A DNA stretch of 40,314 nucleotides from a virus (taxonomy: Duplodnaviria; Heunggongvirae; Uroviricota; Caudoviricetes): positions 1 through 40,314 of the IMG/VR virus record IMGVR_UViG_2563366990_000017; one strand, given 5' to 3'. The notes below the pieces were generated by a model. The model searched no databases and was not told the DNA's origin. It saw nothing but the letters and a program-made list of their open reading frames with translations. Shown in pieces: positions 1 through 35,191 of the stretch (positions within the stretch are counted from its first letter, which is position 1; every line of letters starts with the position of its first letter). Made by a program: the position numbers and the translations under genes.

Positions 1-1158
1 ATGCTCACCGTTAAGCAGATTGAAGCAGCAAAGCCGAAAGAAAAACCATATCGCCTTCTCGATGGTAATGGCCTGTACCTTTATGTCCCTGTGTCAGGGA
101 AAAAGGTATGGCAGCTTCGCTACAAGATTGACGGTAAGGAGAAAATCCTGACTGTCGGAAAATATCCGCTTATGACTTTGCAGGAAGCAAGGGATAAGGC
201 ATGGACCGCAAGAAAAGACATCTCGGTTGGCATCGATCCGGTAAAGGCGAAAAAGGCTTCGTCTAACAACAATTCCTTTAGCGCCATTTACAAGGAATGG
301 TACGAGCACAAGAAGCAAGTCTGGTCTGTAGGGTATGCGACTGAACTTGCAAAAATGTTTGATGACGACATTTTACCTATCATCGGCGGCCTTGAAATTC
401 AGGATATTGAGCCGATGCAACTGCTGGAAGTAATCCGCAGATTTGAAGATCGCGGTGCAATGGAGCGAGCCAACAAAGCACGAAGAAGATGCGGCGAGGT
501 TTTCCGTTACGCTATTGTCACCGGAAGGGCTAAATATAACCCGGCACCTGACCTTGCTGACGCCATGAAGGGATACCGCAAGAAGAACTTCCCGTTTCTT
601 CCTGCAGACCAGATCCCGGCATTTAACAAAGCACTGGCAACATTTTCAGGAAGTATCGTATCGCTCATTGCGACCAAAGTTTTACGCTACACAGCCCTCA
701 GAACAAAAGAGCTTCGTTCCATGCTATGGAAGAACGTCGATTTTGAAAACAGGATTATCACCATCGACGCCAATGTGATGAAGGGACGCAAGATTCATGT
801 GGTTCCGATGTCGGACCAGGTGGTTGAACTTCTCACTACGCTAAGCTCCATCACTAAACCAGTATCAGAGTTTGTTTTTGCCGGACGCAACGATAAGAAA
901 AAGCCAATCTGCGAGAACGCGGTGCTACTTGTGATCAAACAAATCGGCTATGAAGGTCTGGAAAGCGGTCACGGATTCAGGCATGAATTCAGCACGATTA
1001 TGAACGAGCACGAATGGCCTGCTGATGCTATTGAAGTGCAACTGGCACATGCCAACGGCGGATCTGTGCGCGGGATTTACAACCATGCACAGTATCTCGA
1101 TAAGCGCAGAGAAATGATGCAATGGTGGGCGGACTGGATTGATGAAAAGGTGGAGTGA
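1..1158 (+). CDS. int: Tyrosine integrase, P4/IntS-like
   Basis: 385-aa ORF with ATG at 1 and TGA at 1156-1158. N-terminus MLTVKQIEAAKPKEKPYRLLDGNGLYLYV is typical of P4-family integrases; C-terminal half has the R..HxxR..Y catalytic pattern (HGFRHEF, RGIYNHAQY). Identity is from recalled similarity. Confidence 0.9.
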   Translation: MLTVKQIEAAKPKEKPYRLLDGNGLYLYVPVSGKKVWQLRYKIDGKEKILTVGKYPLMTLQEARDKAWTARKDISVGIDPVKAKKASSNNNSFSAIYKEWYEHKKQVWSVGYATELAKMFDDDILPIIGGLEIQDIEPMQLLEVIRRFEDRGAMERANKARRRCGEVFRYAIVTGRAKYNPAPDLADAMKGYRKKNFPFLPADQIPAFNKALATFSGSIVSLIATKVLRYTALRTKELRSMLWKNVDFENRIITIDANVMKGRKIHVVPMSDQVVELLTTLSSITKPVSEFVFAGRNDKKKPICENAVLLVIKQIGYEGLESGHGFRHEFSTIMNEHEWPADAIEVQLAHANGGSVRGIYNHAQYLDKRREMMQWWADWIDEKVE

Positions 1159-1311
1159 TCCGCCTTAACAACTATCGAATATCACAAAGCCTTGTAATCC
1201 AGTGCAAAGCTTTGTTTGTCTCAGTTTTGTCTCATCAACCATAGCAAGTCATCGATCGATTGAGACTTGGATGATAGACTTCATGCCTTTGATTATTAGC
1301 TGACAAAAGAA

Positions 1312-1640: not shown

Positions 1641-3569
1641 TCAATTCGATAGAGTAACTGAAAGATGAGAGCCAGCTATAACAGTTAATGTATTCCCAGC
1701 CCTGTTATCTATGGTAAAAGCTCCATTAATGAAATCAGTAGAAACTGAGGCAACTACATTTAAAGTAACACTTCCATTAACATCAGGAAGAGTGAATTGC
1801 ATAATATTGCTGCCATTTGGAAGTATAGTACCACTTGGCGCAGTAATTCCTATTACTTGCGTCGTGCTTCCAGCACCACCAAGGTAAGAAATGTTTATAT
1901 TTATTGAAATTCTACTACCTTTAGCGATTGTCATCTGCAACTGATTTATATTTGAACCTATTGCTACTATCTTGTTAGAAGATACAAAATCATTTTTTAT
2001 TGAAAAAACAGGTGTAGCAACACCGATGACTGGTACGTTTGAAAGCTTAACAGGCCTTGGAAGTGATAAAGCCTCCCCTGCTCCTGAGTATGAAAAGTCT
2101 GATATTGAACAATTACCACCATCGGTGCCAGAAAACAATATTCCAGAGGTGTGTGAAGAGTCTGTGCTTATATCAGAAAAATGAATATTTGAAGAACCAT
2201 TACCAACAGTTGCTACAACGTGTCCTGTATTAGTTGTAAACTTCATACCAATAACATCAACTCCAGATATATTATTGCCAATGGCAAAACACACCCCACC
2301 TCCCCCCTTGCAGTAGGTTATCTCACCGCTAAATTTTGCATGACACAATCTCTCGATAGTGGCGTTGTTAAACTTAACCCTACCTCCTATGACTGTATTA
2401 ACATTAATTTCTCTACAATGAGTTGTATTTCCCTCTCCAAAATACATAGCAAATCCAGTATTTGAGTTATTTCCTATGAATCCACCATTGACAGTTAACA
2501 CATATATATCAGAGACATCAAATGTTCTTTCGAAATTATCTATTGTGCAATCGGTAAAATGCCAACCCTCATTATAATAAGGGCCACCGGTTGCAGTACT
2601 ATAAATGCCAATTCCAACAGTATCAGTAGCCGATGTCGCCCCAAATACAATGCTCTTATTACAAGCCAACTCTACTGTTTTCCCTGATGAAACAATCCCA
2701 TTTACGGTATAAAACATGCAGGAATCAATAAATATTTGACGAACTGCTTTTTTTAACAAAAGCGCATATGTAATCATTGAAGATGATACATGAACACCGT
2801 AAAGTCTTATCTGTTTAATATAGTCTTCATTGCTAGGTGTGTCGCTATCACCTTCAGCCTCTAAGAATGCACTTGCCGTTCCTGTAACAATGCAGCTGCC
2901 GCCCCAAATTGTTAATCCGATATTTTTACCATTATACTTAAATATAGGAGAACTACCTGTAGAAGCTGTTAACTTTGATCCGCCAAGATAAATAACCCTG
3001 CCATCAGGTATATTTATTGTTCTTTCAATAAGGTAGTCGGTAGGTTCCATATATACAATTTCACAATCATCAATTGCCATCTGAATAGCCTCGGTTATGT
3101 CTGAGGACTGTGAAATATACATTTCTGGTGTTACATACTTTATTGAATATTTAATTGCATTCTCAATTGTACCATATTTATCTATACCTATTAATGATGC
3201 TCCTGATGTGCTTGAAAGTCTTTGCTCCAGCTGATCAGGGTCATACTTCAGCACATTAGGAAAATAGAACTGCTGCGCACCATATGCATCATAAACAGCC
3301 ATAGAATGGCCTTGCACGGTAACGAATTTGGCAATCTGTCCGTTATATACTGGATACCCAGCGGCATTGATGACGATTGGCTGTGCAACAGGAACGTGAG
3401 AACCATCTTCGTTCTCTACATAAACCTGAATTTGGTTTTCAGGATTTACCGGGTCAGTGTCAATTTTACCGATATAAATTTTTCCATTGGCTACGGCTTT
3501 AAAAGAACGCGCCATAGTGAAGAGTTGCGAAGGCATGCTCACTACAACATTGGCTGTAATGTCTGTCAT
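1641..3569 (-). CDS. Tailspike protein (P22 gp9-like head-binding domain plus divergent beta-helix receptor domain)
   Basis: 642 aa with ATG at 3569 and GGAG RBS. N-terminal ~110 aa ([11 protein letters not shown]...[22 protein letters not shown]...[12 protein letters not shown]...NVLKYDPDQ) closely resembles the P22 tailspike head-binding domain. The rest is AT-rich, N/S/T/G/I-rich repeats typical of a right-handed beta-helix. Confidence 0.85.
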
Positions 3570-4548: not shown

Positions 4549-4616
4549 GTCAATATTTCCTAATCCGATTTGTTGATACCGAAGCCCTGACTGTTCCCGC
4601 AGTTGGGGCTTCAACT

Positions 4617-21967: not shown

Positions 21968-22440
21968 ACCTCAATCTCTCTGACCGTTCCGCCAGACTCT
22001 TTGAATTTTGCAATCAGGTTGTCAGCCTTATGCTCGAACTGACCATAACCAGCGCCCGGCAGTGAAGCCCAGATATTGCTGCAACGGTCGATAGCCTGAC
22101 GGATATCACCGCGATCAATCATCGGCAAAGCGCCACGCTCTTTAATCTGCTGCAATGCCACAGCGTCCTGGCTTTTCGGAGAGAAGTCTTTCAGGCCAAG
22201 CTGCTTACGGTAAGCATCCCACCAACGGGAAAGAAGCTGGTAACGTCCTGCTGCTGTTGATTTGAGTTTTGGGTTTAGCGTGACAAGTTTGCGAGGGTGA
22301 TCGGAGTAATCGGTAAATAGCTCTCCGCCAACAATGACGTCATAACCATGATTTCTGGTTTTCTGACGTCCGTTATCAGTTCCCTCTGACCACGCCAGCA
22401 TATCGAGGAACGCCTTACGTTGATTATTGATTTCCACCAT
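21964..22440 (-). CDS. R: Endolysin, lambda R-type lytic transglycosylase
   Basis: 158 aa, [42 protein letters not shown]... near-identical to lambda R. Confidence 0.9.
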
Positions 22441-22747
22441 CTTCTACTCCGGCTTTTTTAGCAGCGAAGCGTTTGATAAGCGAACCAATCGAGTCAGTAC
22501 CGATGTAGCCGATGAACACGCTCGTTATATAAGCGAGATTGCTACTTAGTCCGGCGAAGTCGAGAAGGTCACGAATGAACCAGGCGATAATGGCGCACAT
22601 CGTTGCGTCGATTACTGTTTTTGTAAACGCACCGCCATTATATCTGCCGCGAAGGTACGCCATTGCAAACGCAAGGATTGCCCCGATGCCTTGTTCCTTT
22701 GCCGCGAGAATGGCGGCTAACAGGTCATGTTTTTCTGGCATCTTCAT
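22424..22747 (-). CDS. S: Holin, lambda S-type with dual-start motif
   Basis: 107 aa, [39 protein letters not shown]... near-identical to lambda S. The MKM start gives holin/antiholin dual starts. Confidence 0.9.
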
Positions 22748-22989
22748 GTCTTACCCCCAATAAGGGGATTTGCTCTATTTAATTAGGAATAAGGTCGATT
22801 ACTGATAGAACAAATCCAGGCTACTGTGTTTAGTAATCAGATTTGTTCGTGACCGATATGCACGGGCAAAACGGCAGGAGGTTGTTAGCGCAACTTCTTG
22901 CCACCCGCTTTCACGAAGGTCATGTGTAGAAGGCCGCAGCATAACTATCACTGATGAATTCAGGATAGCCAGTGGCTACGGCTCAGTTA

Positions 22990-23065
22990 TGGTGCTGGTT
23001 AACGGACTTGAACCGCTACCCATTCGCTTACAAGGCGACTGCTCTACCATTGGAGCTAAACCAGC
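22990..23065 (-). tRNA. tRNA, anticodon UGU (Thr) by manual folding
   Basis: 76 nt on the minus strand: acceptor GCTGGTT/AACCAGC, D-stem GCTC/GAGC, anticodon loop CTTGTAA, T-arm AGCGG-TTCAAGT-CCGTT, discriminator A, CCA. One mismatch at the first anticodon-stem pair. Not verified computationally. Confidence 0.5.
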
Positions 23066-23070
23066 ATATT

Positions 23071-23145
23071 TGGCGGGACAGCATGGGCTCGAACCACGAT
23101 AAGAAGGTTAACAGCCTTCCGTAATGACCTTTATACGACTTACCC
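23071..23145 (-). tRNA. tRNA-like sequence, anticodon GUU (Asn), possibly a pseudo-tRNA
   Basis: 75 nt on the minus strand: perfect anticodon stem GAAGG/CCTTC with loop CTGTTAA, T-arm CGTGG-TTCGAGC-CCATG, 3' CCA. Acceptor stem has 2 mismatches and the D-stem is weak. Confidence 0.35.
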
Positions 23146-23208
23146 AAATAAAAAAAGCCACCGTTGCAACTTAAGAGTCACTAACGGCAGCTTACCTTCT
23201 AATTATGG

Positions 23209-23727
23209 CTAAATGGATAATTGCATGTCAAGGCTTTTAACAGCAACATGCTTAACTTTCTCAACACGTTTACGCATTTTGAAAGCATTTTGCATTGGCT
23301 GGTACAAAACAAATAACGACGCTTTCAGGATGTCGTCAATTTCGTTTCTACAGGTTGCCAGTGAAGGTTTTCTCCATCCCTCGCCACCACGTCCACACAT
23401 CTTGCGTGGCTTTGCAGTCGCGTGATAGTAGGATGCAATTGCTCGCTTAGATGAACCATGAGCGTAGTAGCTGAGGAGGATGCCAAAGGCTTTCTTGTCA
23501 ATGCACATGACGGAATCGACGACCTGAGAAATCAACATTCCATCATCATCATTGCACATTGGCCTTGTCATAACTCTTCCCGGCTCTACGCTCTCCATGA
23601 ACTTCGCTATTACGCTGCTCATGCGCTTTTCCAGACGACCTGAATAAACCCATGCGCCCCACAGTTCAAGCCAGCCATTCAGCCACTCGTGCTGCTCTTT
23701 GGTGAGGTTTAGTTCTCTTATTCCCAT
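23209..23727 (-). CDS. Q: Late-gene antiterminator Q (non-lambda Q family)
   Basis: 172 aa, immediately downstream of ninI and upstream of the tRNAs and lysis cassette. Size and position fit Q of 21/82-type lambdoid phages. Confidence 0.7.
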
Positions 23728-33514: not shown

Positions 33515-33826
33515 ATGATGATTCTGACTCTGAATGATAAGCGTGAAATATCGCAAATAATCGCAAGTTTTACTGATGAAGATTACGAGCGAATCAACAG
33601 TGAAGTTGATCGCCTCTGCAAACGTTGCGACCCAATAAGCGAAATGCTTCGCTTATATAAACCAGATGAACACACTAAGGACGCTATCGACTGGCTGGAA
33701 GATGATGACTGTAACTATCAGGAAAAAGCCGCTGAATGGTTCTGGGATGCAATAACCGAAAGAGTTAAGGCTGAATATGCCTTCGCAATATTCAAACGCA
33801 GACATATTTATGGAGAAGCTGCATGA
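33515..33826 (+). CDS. Hypothetical early protein (103 aa)
   Basis: Acidic protein (DEDYERINSEVDRL, DWLEDDDCNYQE). Stop overlaps the RecT start (ATGA). Confidence 0.5.
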   Translation: MMILTLNDKREISQIIASFTDEDYERINSEVDRLCKRCDPISEMLRLYKPDEHTKDAIDWLEDDDCNYQEKAAEWFWDAITERVKAEYAFAIFKRRHIYGEAA

Positions 33827-34725
33827 GCAATATCGTTGAATTCGTTAAACAGCAGGAGCAGTTATTCTGCGGAGCATTGACTGAACAGACGGTGACATGG
33901 GCTAAGGAAAGCCAGTTTGCAATTCAGTATTTCCAGAAAAACGATTACCTGGCTAAAACAGCACTGGCAAATCCAACCAGCGCACAGAACGCCATCATCA
34001 ATGTTGCGGCGATCGGCATCACCTTAAACCCGGCCAGCAAACTGGCTTATCTGGTTCCTCGCGACGGCATGGTGTGCCTTGATATCAGTTACATGGGATT
34101 ACTTCATCTTGCGCAATCGACAGGATCAATTAAGTGGGGGCAATGCAAACTGGTGTACTCAAACGACACCTATGAATCAAATGGCCTTGATTCAGCACCA
34201 ACCCACAAATACAACGCATTTGGTGAGCGAGGCTCTATTGTTGGAGGTTATTGCACGGTTAAAACAGCAGATGGTGACTACCTGACTGAAGAAATGAGTC
34301 TGGCAGAAATTAAAGCTGTGGAAGCAACGAGCAAGGCTAAGAATGGACCGTGGAAGACATTCTGGGAAGAGATGGCGCGTAAAACCATAGTTAAACGCGC
34401 CAGCAAATACTGGCCTAAAGCCCAGCGACTGGATAATGCCATTCACCTGCTTAACGAAGATGAAGGTATGCATCAGGAACCAGTTATGCCGCACAAATCA
34501 GAGGAAGATATCCGCGAAGATGAACGGAAACGCCAGCAGGAAATAACTGATAAAGCACAACTTCTTTGTGATGAAATGGCTCAGGCTGAAAACATGGATG
34601 ATTTGAAGAGATATTTTGCAGAAGCATATCGCCTGACATCTGGAATGAAATTGCAGCAGAACATACAAGCCATTTACATAGAATGCAAAGCGAAACTGGA
34701 GGTTGCCAGTGAGCAAACTATATGA
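33823..34725 (+). CDS. recT: RecT-family single-strand annealing recombinase
   Basis: 300 aa. ...KNGPWKTFWEEMARKTIVKRASKYWP... matches the RecT signature (Rac RecT has NGPWVTHWEEMAKKTAIRRLFKYLP). Confidence 0.85.
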   Translation: MSNIVEFVKQQEQLFCGALTEQTVTWAKESQFAIQYFQKNDYLAKTALANPTSAQNAIINVAAIGITLNPASKLAYLVPRDGMVCLDISYMGLLHLAQSTGSIKWGQCKLVYSNDTYESNGLDSAPTHKYNAFGERGSIVGGYCTVKTADGDYLTEEMSLAEIKAVEATSKAKNGPWKTFWEEMARKTIVKRASKYWPKAQRLDNAIHLLNEDEGMHQEPVMPHKSEEDIREDERKRQQEITDKAQLLCDEMAQAENMDDLKRYFAEAYRLTSGMKLQQNIQAIYIECKAKLEVASEQTI

Positions 34726-35191
34726 AATAGCCAATGAATACGCAAAATTGATGGATTCAGATTTAGAGCCAGAGATGATTGCTGACACAATAGAAGGCAT
34801 GGAAGGAGAATTTACCGATAAAATAGAGCAACTTCTCGCCATTATTAAAAATGAATCTGGTTATGCTGAACGCCTCAAGGAAGAGGCAAAGTCACTAAAT
34901 GAACGAGCAGCAGTAATTCAAAATAAGATTGATAGCATTATGGCGTATATAGCGTCATCGCTTGAAATGGTTGGCAAGAAAAAGATTAGAGCAGGTATTC
35001 ACCAGGTAACAATCCGCAAACCGTCAGAAACTGTAGAAATCATCGACTCAAGCGCCATTCCTCCTGAATACGTTGAGTTCGAAACGACAATTAAAGCCGA
35101 CAAACTGGCAATCAAACACCAACTAAAAGCAGGAATAAATATCCCAGGTGCTCAACTCAAAGTTGGGAAACCTTCACTTCTTATCAAATAA
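34709..35191 (+). CDS. Hypothetical protein, possibly siphovirus Gp157-like, RecT-associated
   Basis: No in-frame ATG near the 5' end. Start taken as GTG at 34709, 7 nt after GGAGG (track uses TTG at 34703). Overlaps the RecT stop. Confidence 0.45.
   Translation: MSKLYEIANEYAKLMDSDLEPEMIADTIEGMEGEFTDKIEQLLAIIKNESGYAERLKEEAKSLNERAAVIQNKIDSIMAYIASSLEMVGKKKIRAGIHQVTIRKPSETVEIIDSSAIPPEYVEFETTIKADKLAIKHQLKAGINIPGAQLKVGKPSLLIK

Follow-up and report, generated by a model that had tools for sequence, protein, structure and literature searches.

The 40,314-nt stretch of viral DNA analyzed here, IMG/VR record IMGVR_UViG_2563366990_000017 (hereafter the window), is a P22-like genome (Lederbergvirus, Sf6-like) that carries two adjacent tRNA genes, one for tRNA-Asn(GUU) and one for tRNA-Thr(UGU), between its Q-type late antiterminator gene and its holin gene. 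This gene pair is already known as the Asn(GUU)-Thr(UGU) cassette of phage 21 and Sf6. Both tRNAs are annotated in the Sf6 record (AF547987) with the note "similar to phage 21," and the pair is also annotated in BTP1, SPN9CC, Oslo, and other phages. As in the pairs of phage 21, Sf6, and BTP1 (AJ237660, AF547987, and LT714109), tRNA-Asn comes before tRNA-Thr in the window, 5 nt separate the two, they follow the same leader with the late promoter PR′ and the late terminator tR′, and the holin gene lies downstream. The main differences are the spacer, which reads AAUAU in the window and AACAU in phage 21 and Sf6, and three private or rare substitutions in the window tRNA-Asn (C5A, U60C, and C64U) relative to the three described pairs.

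More distant systems share either the position or the isoacceptors of this cassette. In the Shiga toxin (Stx) phage 933W, the tRNA genes ileZ, argN, and argO occupy the same late-leader slot, between Q/PR′ and the first late genes, and read the rare codons AUA, AGA, and AGG. The window cassette instead decodes ACA and AAY, and only its Klebsiella-type relatives add tRNAs for Arg(UCU), Phe, and Gly. The isoacceptors Asn(GUU) and Thr(UGU) also occur together in P1 and P7, where they are in tandem, in N4, and in Klebsiella phages. The order in P1/P7 and in N4 (Asn-Ser-Thr) is likewise Asn and then Thr, with a spacing of 2–5 nt in P7. The N4 and P7 tRNA-Thr genes are 80–86% identical to that of the window, and the P7 and N4 tRNA-Asn genes belong to a different, more canonical lineage (74.5 bits).

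The host counterparts of both tRNAs are targets of the Toprim tRNases Old and AriB, alongside tRNA-Lys(UUU) (PMC12409363). Old of phage P2, the classic nuclease of lambdoid-phage exclusion, kills through degradation of the host tRNA-Thr(UGU) (Govande et al., 2025; PMC12445682), and it cleaves host tRNA-Asn(GUU) as well, more slowly. The enzyme cuts after the C in CNG motifs that are paired with each other in the anticodon stem (positions 28–30 and 40–42; PMC12445682). Phage tRNA-Thr(UGU) genes, including that of phage 21, termed Thr21, rescue cells from Old; Thr21 escapes cleavage by virtue of C28U/G42A and a shorter anticodon stem, and it restores ACA decoding (PMC12445682). The protection by Thr21 was observed upon plasmid expression in trans in Escherichia coli expressing Old plus Gam (PMC12445682). 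The PARIS nuclease AriB depletes the tRNAs Lys(UUU), Thr(UGU), and Asn(GUU), cutting between positions 40 and 41, after U36-A-A-U39-C40, and mutation of U39 abolishes this cut (PMC12409363). Neutralization of AriB by T5 requires all three T5 tRNA variants (PMC12409363).

The comparisons described below make it quite probable that the window carries a genuine copy of the known cassette and that this copy serves late decoding of ACA and AAU/AAC, by topping up the tRNA supply for these codons, by replacing tRNAs destroyed by nucleases, or both.

Structures of the Two tRNAs

In the 40-kb window, ARAGORN calls two tRNAs and no more, namely tRNA-Thr(UGU) along with tRNA-Asn(GUU) (Table 1). Both also lie above the gathering score of the Rfam tRNA model RF00005 (29 bits), with 61.5 bits for tRNA-Thr (E 4e-11) and 46.5 bits for tRNA-Asn (E 6e-7), as expected of bacterial elongator tRNAs. 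An earlier sequence-only reading, made by manual folding, had placed two tRNAs at these same coordinates with these same anticodons and had named scores below threshold for both as a result that would overturn it; both scores instead clear the threshold. Its description of the two structures also agrees with the Rfam alignment. In that alignment, tRNA-Thr is near-canonical, and its sole mismatch, G27·A43, shortens an anticodon stem that carries U28-A42. In tRNA-Asn, the anticodon arm is perfect, the T arm is good, and G73 and an encoded CCA are present; two neighboring mismatches, U4·U69 and A5·G68, lie in the acceptor stem and one, U13·U22, in the D stem. In addition, a G50·U64 pair and C60 are present in tRNA-Asn.

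A direct reading of the alignments shows that U8, A14, G18G19, U54-U55-C56, and A58 are kept in both tRNAs; in each, the anticodon loop is 7 nt long and includes U33 and R37, and CCA is encoded. The identity elements of AsnRS are G34, U35, U36, and G73, and those of ThrRS are G1-C72, C2-G71, G35, and U36. The window tRNA-Asn holds G73 and the GUU anticodon, and tRNA-Thr holds G1-C72, C2-G71, G35, and U36. As judged from sequence, both loci are genuine tRNA genes.

The window tRNA-Thr is identical at 76 of 76 positions to the tRNA-Thr of phage 21, Sf6, and BTP1; the identity to Thr21 is based on the phage 21 GenBank record AJ237660, which contains the same 166-nt cassette at 97.6% identity. Across the 801 bases around the pair, the window is 98% identical to Sf6, HF4s, 720R6, and Bas106. 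The cassette is found, annotated by PGAP, in 369 of 5,426 complete E. coli genomes (~7%), and a scan for the D-arm motif recovers it in at least 120 IMG/VR contigs. Among the GTDB species genomes covered by the scan, six contain the same motif: Escherichia sp., E. albertii, Phytobacter, Shimwellia, and two contigs from gut metagenome-assembled genomes. Among 132 loci, 103 have tRNA-Asn followed by tRNA-Thr, eight have tRNA-Asn followed by tRNA-Gly(UCC), six have tRNA-Asn alone, and the remainder are Klebsiella/Phytobacter-type arrays that add Phe(GAA), Arg(UCU), and Gly(UCC). The spacer of the Asn-Thr loci is AATAT in 48 and AACAT in 50.

Many P22-like GenBank genomes that are 97–98% identical in this region leave these tRNAs unannotated (e.g., HF4s MT833387, P6 OP265889, 118970_sal4 KU878967, and 29485 KY709687), and some of these records place a "hypothetical protein" in the interval from Q to the holin gene.

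Evolutionary Constraint on Both tRNA Families

Covariation was assessed on 21 distinct tRNA-Thr alleles and 20 distinct tRNA-Asn alleles from ~130 related loci, with 500 shuffles for comparison. In the tRNA-Thr family, compensatory double changes are observed at 3:70, 5:68, 6:67, and 49:65, and the covariation of 0.128 (0.076 in the shuffles) is reached by none of the 500 shuffles. In the tRNA-Asn family, such changes are observed at 5:68, 6:67, 7:66, 28:42, and 29:41, and the covariation of 0.149 (0.062 in the shuffles) is again reached by none of the 500. In controls in which the pairing partner was slid along the sequence, covariation collapses. The window allele of tRNA-Thr is the commonest (66 loci), and the anticodon arm of this family is almost invariant, with G27·A43 unpaired in 21 of 21 alleles.

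The sequence-only reading had proposed that the second gene may be a decaying pseudo-tRNA or a regulatory element. For the family as a whole, both proposals are ruled out by the five covarying pairs and the intact core and identity elements: the family lies above the Rfam threshold, and neither G73, the anticodon GUU, nor any of the core tertiary nucleotides is lost. The mismatches U4·U69 (18 of 20 alleles) and U13·U22 (all 20) recur across the family, and on this alignment, they are conserved traits of a constrained RNA rather than signs of decay.

For the window copy, the proposal of decay receives partial support. C5A, U60C, and C64U (standard numbering) distinguish the window tRNA-Asn from the consensus allele (91 loci). 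Nine loci have U60C alone, the full combination is a singleton among the ~130 loci, and none of the 369 cassette-bearing E. coli genomes reaches 99% identity to the window cassette. C5A breaks the 5:68 pair and is uncompensated in the window, giving the tandem U4·U69 and A5·G68 mismatches, whereas in another locus (L120), the same change is offset by G68U. The cloverleaf of the window tRNA-Asn has an energy of −13.9 kcal/mol, compared with −19.1 kcal/mol for the consensus; its minimum-energy fold (−16.8 kcal/mol, z 0.09; −21.6 kcal/mol for the consensus) is not a cloverleaf, and its Rfam score is 8.8 bits below the 55.3 bits of the family consensus. Together with the decay of cassettes seen elsewhere (the second tRNA of phage L and the Asn/Gly fusions, described below), these features favor a reading in which the window tRNA-Asn is a decaying, nonfunctional pseudo-tRNA and tRNA-Thr alone is functional in this phage. 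This reading is nevertheless unlikely, given that the window tRNA-Asn is called by ARAGORN, lies 17 bits over the Rfam threshold, and has intact anticodon and T arms, G73, CCA, U8, A14, G18G19, and T-loop. Three changes in 75 nt are not significantly more than the ~1.3 expected from a flank divergence of ~1.7% (Poisson estimate, P about 0.14). One of these changes merely converts a G-C pair to G·U, and another falls at the variable T-loop position 60. Acceptor mismatches are tolerated by real tRNAs, and U4·U69 is found family-wide. From the predicted folds and scores, the private acceptor-stem mutation probably weakens the tRNA and does not destroy it.

Comparison with tRNAs That Resist Old and AriB

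The anticodons of the pair correspond to the preferences of both nucleases: Thr(UGU) is the primary target of Old and a prime target of AriB, and for the two enzymes alike, Asn(GUU) comes second. As aforementioned for Thr21, C28U/G42A removes both CNG motifs from the identical window tRNA-Thr, and G27·A43 shortens its stem. The window tRNA-Thr has UCG/CGA in place of the CNG pair and reads UAAGC|G around the AriB cut site (vertical line). In the window tRNA-Asn, AAG/CUU takes the place of the CGG/CCG of host asnT, so both CNG halves are lost; the cut-site sequence is UAACC|U, and the stem retains its full 5 bp. In P7, by comparison, tRNA-Thr retains both CNG motifs and a full stem, and tRNA-Asn retains UAAUC|A.

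In the validated T5 tRNAs for Lys, Thr, and Asn, U39 is missing and the basal pair of the anticodon stem is broken. Two of these three isoacceptors are common to the window pair. As in T5, neither window tRNA has U39, and both are changed at position 41 (the Mut1 and Mut2 positions). The broken basal pair recurs in the window tRNA-Thr, whereas the anticodon stem of the window tRNA-Asn is intact. Unlike T5, the window phage has no tRNA-Lys, and its tRNA sequences are unrelated to the T5 genes. Cleavage determinants are thus altered in both window tRNAs, which counts for little when taken by itself.

Both anticodon loops (CUUGUAA in tRNA-Thr and CUGUUAA in tRNA-Asn) are identical to those of the host, and any evasion would therefore be of nucleases that cut the stem, not of those that nick the loop. 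The host-identical loops give no support to an escape from anticodon-loop nickases, such as PrrC and colicin E5, through changed loops. The possibility that the phage encodes a tRNase of its own, to which the pair would confer immunity, was also considered and set aside, with no defense system matched by PADLOC among ten accessory open reading frames (ORFs).

The three assignments differ in strength. Counter-defense of tRNA-Thr against P2 Old has been shown experimentally for the identical phage 21 sequence, with the difference that the setting there was a plasmid in cells with Old and Gam, and the setting here is a Q-gated locus of a P22-like phage that is known from sequence. Resistance of tRNA-Thr to PARIS AriB is predicted from its stem, and a counter-defense role for tRNA-Asn is plausible from the altered stem positions.

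Codon Supply of the Late Genes

Codon usage in the window late genes was compared with that of 42 annotated K-12 genes, drawn from a K-12 sample of only 50 kb. The codon ACA is used 17.7 times per 1000 in the late genes and 5.4 times in the host sample (3.1-fold), which among the 61 codons places it 4th by ratio and 5th by absolute excess. AAU is used 26.3 and 13.8 times per 1000, respectively (~1.9-fold), and ranks 10th by ratio and 4th by excess. AAC, which ranks 29th of 61 by ratio, is not enriched. The proposal of the sequence-only reading, that the tRNAs support late-gene codon usage, thus stands for ACA and AAU and fails for AAC. The putative tailspike gene (window 1641–3569, minus strand) is especially rich in these codons, with ACA at 37 and Asn at 73 per 1000, compared with 5.4 and about 37 per 1000 in the E. 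coli sample.

A reading in which the tRNAs only raise the ACA and AAU/AAC supply for late structural genes, with any nuclease resistance incidental, would draw on these enrichments and on the tailspike gene. It would also draw on N4, whose tRNAs for Asn, Ser(UGA), and Thr(UGU) match three top excess codons of the window late genes. The gene copy numbers of the host point in both directions: thrU is a single-copy gene, which favors this reading, and E. coli has four tRNA-Asn genes, which counts against it, as does the lack of AAC enrichment. In a 2026 survey, both Sf6 tRNAs match codons whose use differs significantly between phage and host (PMC13015707). The codons with the highest ratios in the late genes, however, are AGA (4.3-fold, 1st) and AUA (3.5-fold, 2nd), and the phage carries a tRNA for neither. 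Furthermore, G27·A43 of tRNA-Thr is kept in all alleles, although the acceptor stem of the same tRNA co-varies freely. Compensation as the sole function is accordingly doubtful. Codon usage is a reasonable but incomplete explanation, because the tRNA-Thr gene is identical to the phage 21 tRNA-Thr that counters Old.

Late Leader and Proposed Gating by Q

The arrangement of phage-borne tRNA genes just downstream of Q in the late transcript, as the sequence-only reading had recognized, is a known one among lambdoid phages. The window pair does lie between the Q-type gene, of the phage 21 Q family, and the holin gene (Table 1). Homologous records label the former gene "antitermination protein Q" or "similar to phage 21 Q." The only match of the promoter scan in positions 22600–23400 is PR′, and the identical sequence is annotated as PR′ in Sf6 and HK75. 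Downstream of PR′, the tR′ hairpin folds with −21.5 kcal/mol (z = −4.74) and is followed by a U7 run; it was revealed by folding, as a simple terminator scan missed this long, bulged stem. The same region is annotated as qut/terminator tR′ in Sf6, as tR′ in HK75, and as a short terminated "aRNA" in phage 21, and the window leader corresponds to this ~50-nt terminated aRNA. Only 4 nt separate the end of tR′ from the start of tRNA-Asn. On the other side of the pair, the 242-nt leader that precedes the holin gene is near-identical in Sf6 and also in the tRNA-less HK75.

Table 1. Features of the late-leader region of the window.
Feature	Position	Strand	Basis and remarks
Holin/antiholin gene, first late protein gene	22424..22747	−	107-aa ORF, dual start; annotated in Sf6 and HK75
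Conserved untranslated late leader, tRNAs to holin start	22748..22989	−	242 nt
tRNA-Thr(UGU)	22990..23065	−	76 nt, CCA encoded; ARAGORN and Rfam
Inter-tRNA spacer AAUAU	23066..23070	−	5 nt
tRNA-Asn(GUU)	23071..23145	−	75 nt, CCA encoded, G73; ARAGORN and Rfam
Late leader (qut region)	23146..23199	−	tR′ hairpin ~23199–23157 and U7 run 23156–23150
Late promoter PR′	23202..23231	−	TTGACA-18 nt-CATAAT; promoter scan, 11/12 matches
Q-type late antiterminator gene, phage 21 Q family	23209..23727	−	172-aa ORF

Because the tRNAs sit behind the late terminator, their bulk production is expected only after antitermination by Q. From this layout, both tRNAs would be transcribed from PR′ and would reach large amounts only once Q permits read-through of tR′, the moment at which Asn- and ACA-rich virion proteins need to be translated. 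RNase P and 3′ trimming would then release the two tRNAs with their encoded CCA. In BTP1, which has an identical tRNA-Thr and the consensus tRNA-Asn, the RNA-seq study sets the two tRNA genes apart from its list of genes with transcripts per million (TPM) >100, and the lytic operon begins "directly after" the two tRNA genes (PMC7067206).

The hairpin observed in the window is found 3–6 nt upstream of the array in 101 of 132 related loci, and at least two other, unrelated leader types likewise end in a hairpin and T-run right before the array. The same tRNA array is seen behind at least four different leaders (L014, L021, L024, and others; L010; L074; and the L005 type), and in three of these, an unrelated hairpin and T-run lie 3–6 nt before tRNA-Asn. 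The cassette seems to move among late-regulation modules while keeping its position just after the terminator.

Elsewhere in the window, the sar antisense RNA is found at 4550–4616 on the plus strand (RF00262, 71.6 bits), a sign that the phage has an immI (ant) region of the P22 type.

Decayed, Chimeric, and Replaced Cassettes

In HK75 (L002, about 1095–1300, minus strand), PR′/tR′ and the downstream leader are identical to those of the window, and the two-tRNA block is replaced by ~200 nt of unrelated filler. The filler ends in a tRNA-like remnant of a T-arm and acceptor (GCCGGTTCGATTCCGGCCGCCACAACC), in which ARAGORN finds no tRNA and Rfam gives only a 17-nt T-arm match (E 0.056).

In ten other loci (L018, L041, L087, L089, L098, L106, L107, L119, L117, and, from E. 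albertii, L135), the second tRNA is chimeric: it follows the phage tRNA-Thr through nt 26 and is host thrU-like thereafter, and a glyT-like tRNA-Gly(UCC) begins 3 nt on. Most of these chimeras have an anticodon stem reduced to 3 bp (ACUGA...UCAUC) and are not called by ARAGORN, and L117 is a clean phage/thrU hybrid. The chimeras suggest recombination with a thrU-glyT-type cluster. In L045 and L048, the 5′ part of tRNA-Asn is joined at the conserved GGTTCGA of the T-loop to the 3′ end of a tRNA-Gly, and no tRNA is called; this fusion is a deletion by T-loop-to-T-loop recombination. In phage L (L004, MW013503, 786–857) and in L099, the anticodon stem of the second tRNA is 4 nt short, with the sequence ...GCGCCUUCCUAAGAAGG... 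This second tRNA of the phage L/ST64T type is annotated in GenBank as tRNA-Leu(TAA), is not called by ARAGORN, and scores 42.1 bits in Rfam; it is probably a decayed or repurposed tRNA-Thr gene.

The constant adjacency of the array to a late terminator and the use of the slot as a recombination hotspot, with its chimeras and T-loop fusions, might suggest that the array acts mainly in cis, as an element for RNA processing or stability, as an accessory to termination or antitermination, or as a recombination or attachment site, rather than in decoding. This is highly improbable. The conserved anticodons, discriminator base, CCA, and tertiary nucleotides and the compensatory stem changes are typical of decoding tRNAs, and the phage 21 tRNA-Thr acts in trans from a plasmid (PMC12445682). 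Nor are the tRNAs needed in cis, because HK75 lacks them yet shares the promoter, the terminator, and the downstream leader. An attachment-site or other cis-acting role is ruled out by these identical flanks together with the action of Thr21 in trans.

Biological Role of the Cassette

Two benefits of the cassette can be envisaged. The tRNAs may top up the supply for codons that the phage over-uses, and they may replace host tRNAs that are destroyed by the Toprim tRNases that competing P2-like prophages and P4-like satellites carry. These benefits would be nonexclusive, and their shared job would be to keep late decoding of ACA and AAU/AAC going.

A more specific proposal is that the pair is a dedicated, Q-gated counter-defense cassette of temperate enterobacterial phages, the members of which have been co-selected because the Toprim tRNases of these rivals (Old, PARIS AriB, and relatives) deplete these very host tRNAs, and that U4·U69, U13·U22, the unusual D arm of tRNA-Asn, and G27·A43 are features of nuclease evasion and not of decay. 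This proposal can be offered only tentatively, as several observations weigh against it. The phage has no tRNA for Lys(UUU), the main target of AriB, and the pair alone should therefore not defeat B185-type PARIS. Differences in the stem are expected of any unrelated (non-orthologous) tRNA, and the prediction of resistance from sequence is weak because the prior chance of lacking U39 is ~3 in 4. In seven of 20 tRNA-Asn alleles, of the Klebsiella and Phytobacter types, C28-G42 brings back both CNG motifs. The cassette is absent from HK75 and other relatives, which makes it dispensable. The lack of AAC enrichment, the AGA and AUA excess with no matching tRNA, and the non-cloverleaf minimum fold of the window tRNA-Asn are to be counted against the broader reading of a cassette for late decoding.

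The early-left region provides a further point of this kind. Old is triggered by proteins such as lambda Gam or P22 Abc2, and neither is found among the ten early-left ORFs in Pfam and PHROGs. The matches obtained for these ORFs are N, CIII, RecT, Gp157/"Mu Gam-like," and Ead/Ea22, and no recognized RecBCD inhibitor family is among them. The recombination module of the window (33823–35191, plus strand) comprises a RecT-like protein and Sipho_Gp157 (PHROG "Mu Gam-like end protection"), and is neither the Exo/Bet/Gam module of lambda nor the Erf/Abc module of P22.

As a sequence feature, the pair is ordinary. Its interest lies in its partners: Asn(GUU), the constant companion of Thr(UGU) in this cassette, is the other non-lysine target common to Old and PARIS AriB. 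If the counter-defense reading is true, a small, Q-gated tRNA cassette would let widespread temperate phages withstand the tRNA-cutting defenses of competing mobile elements.

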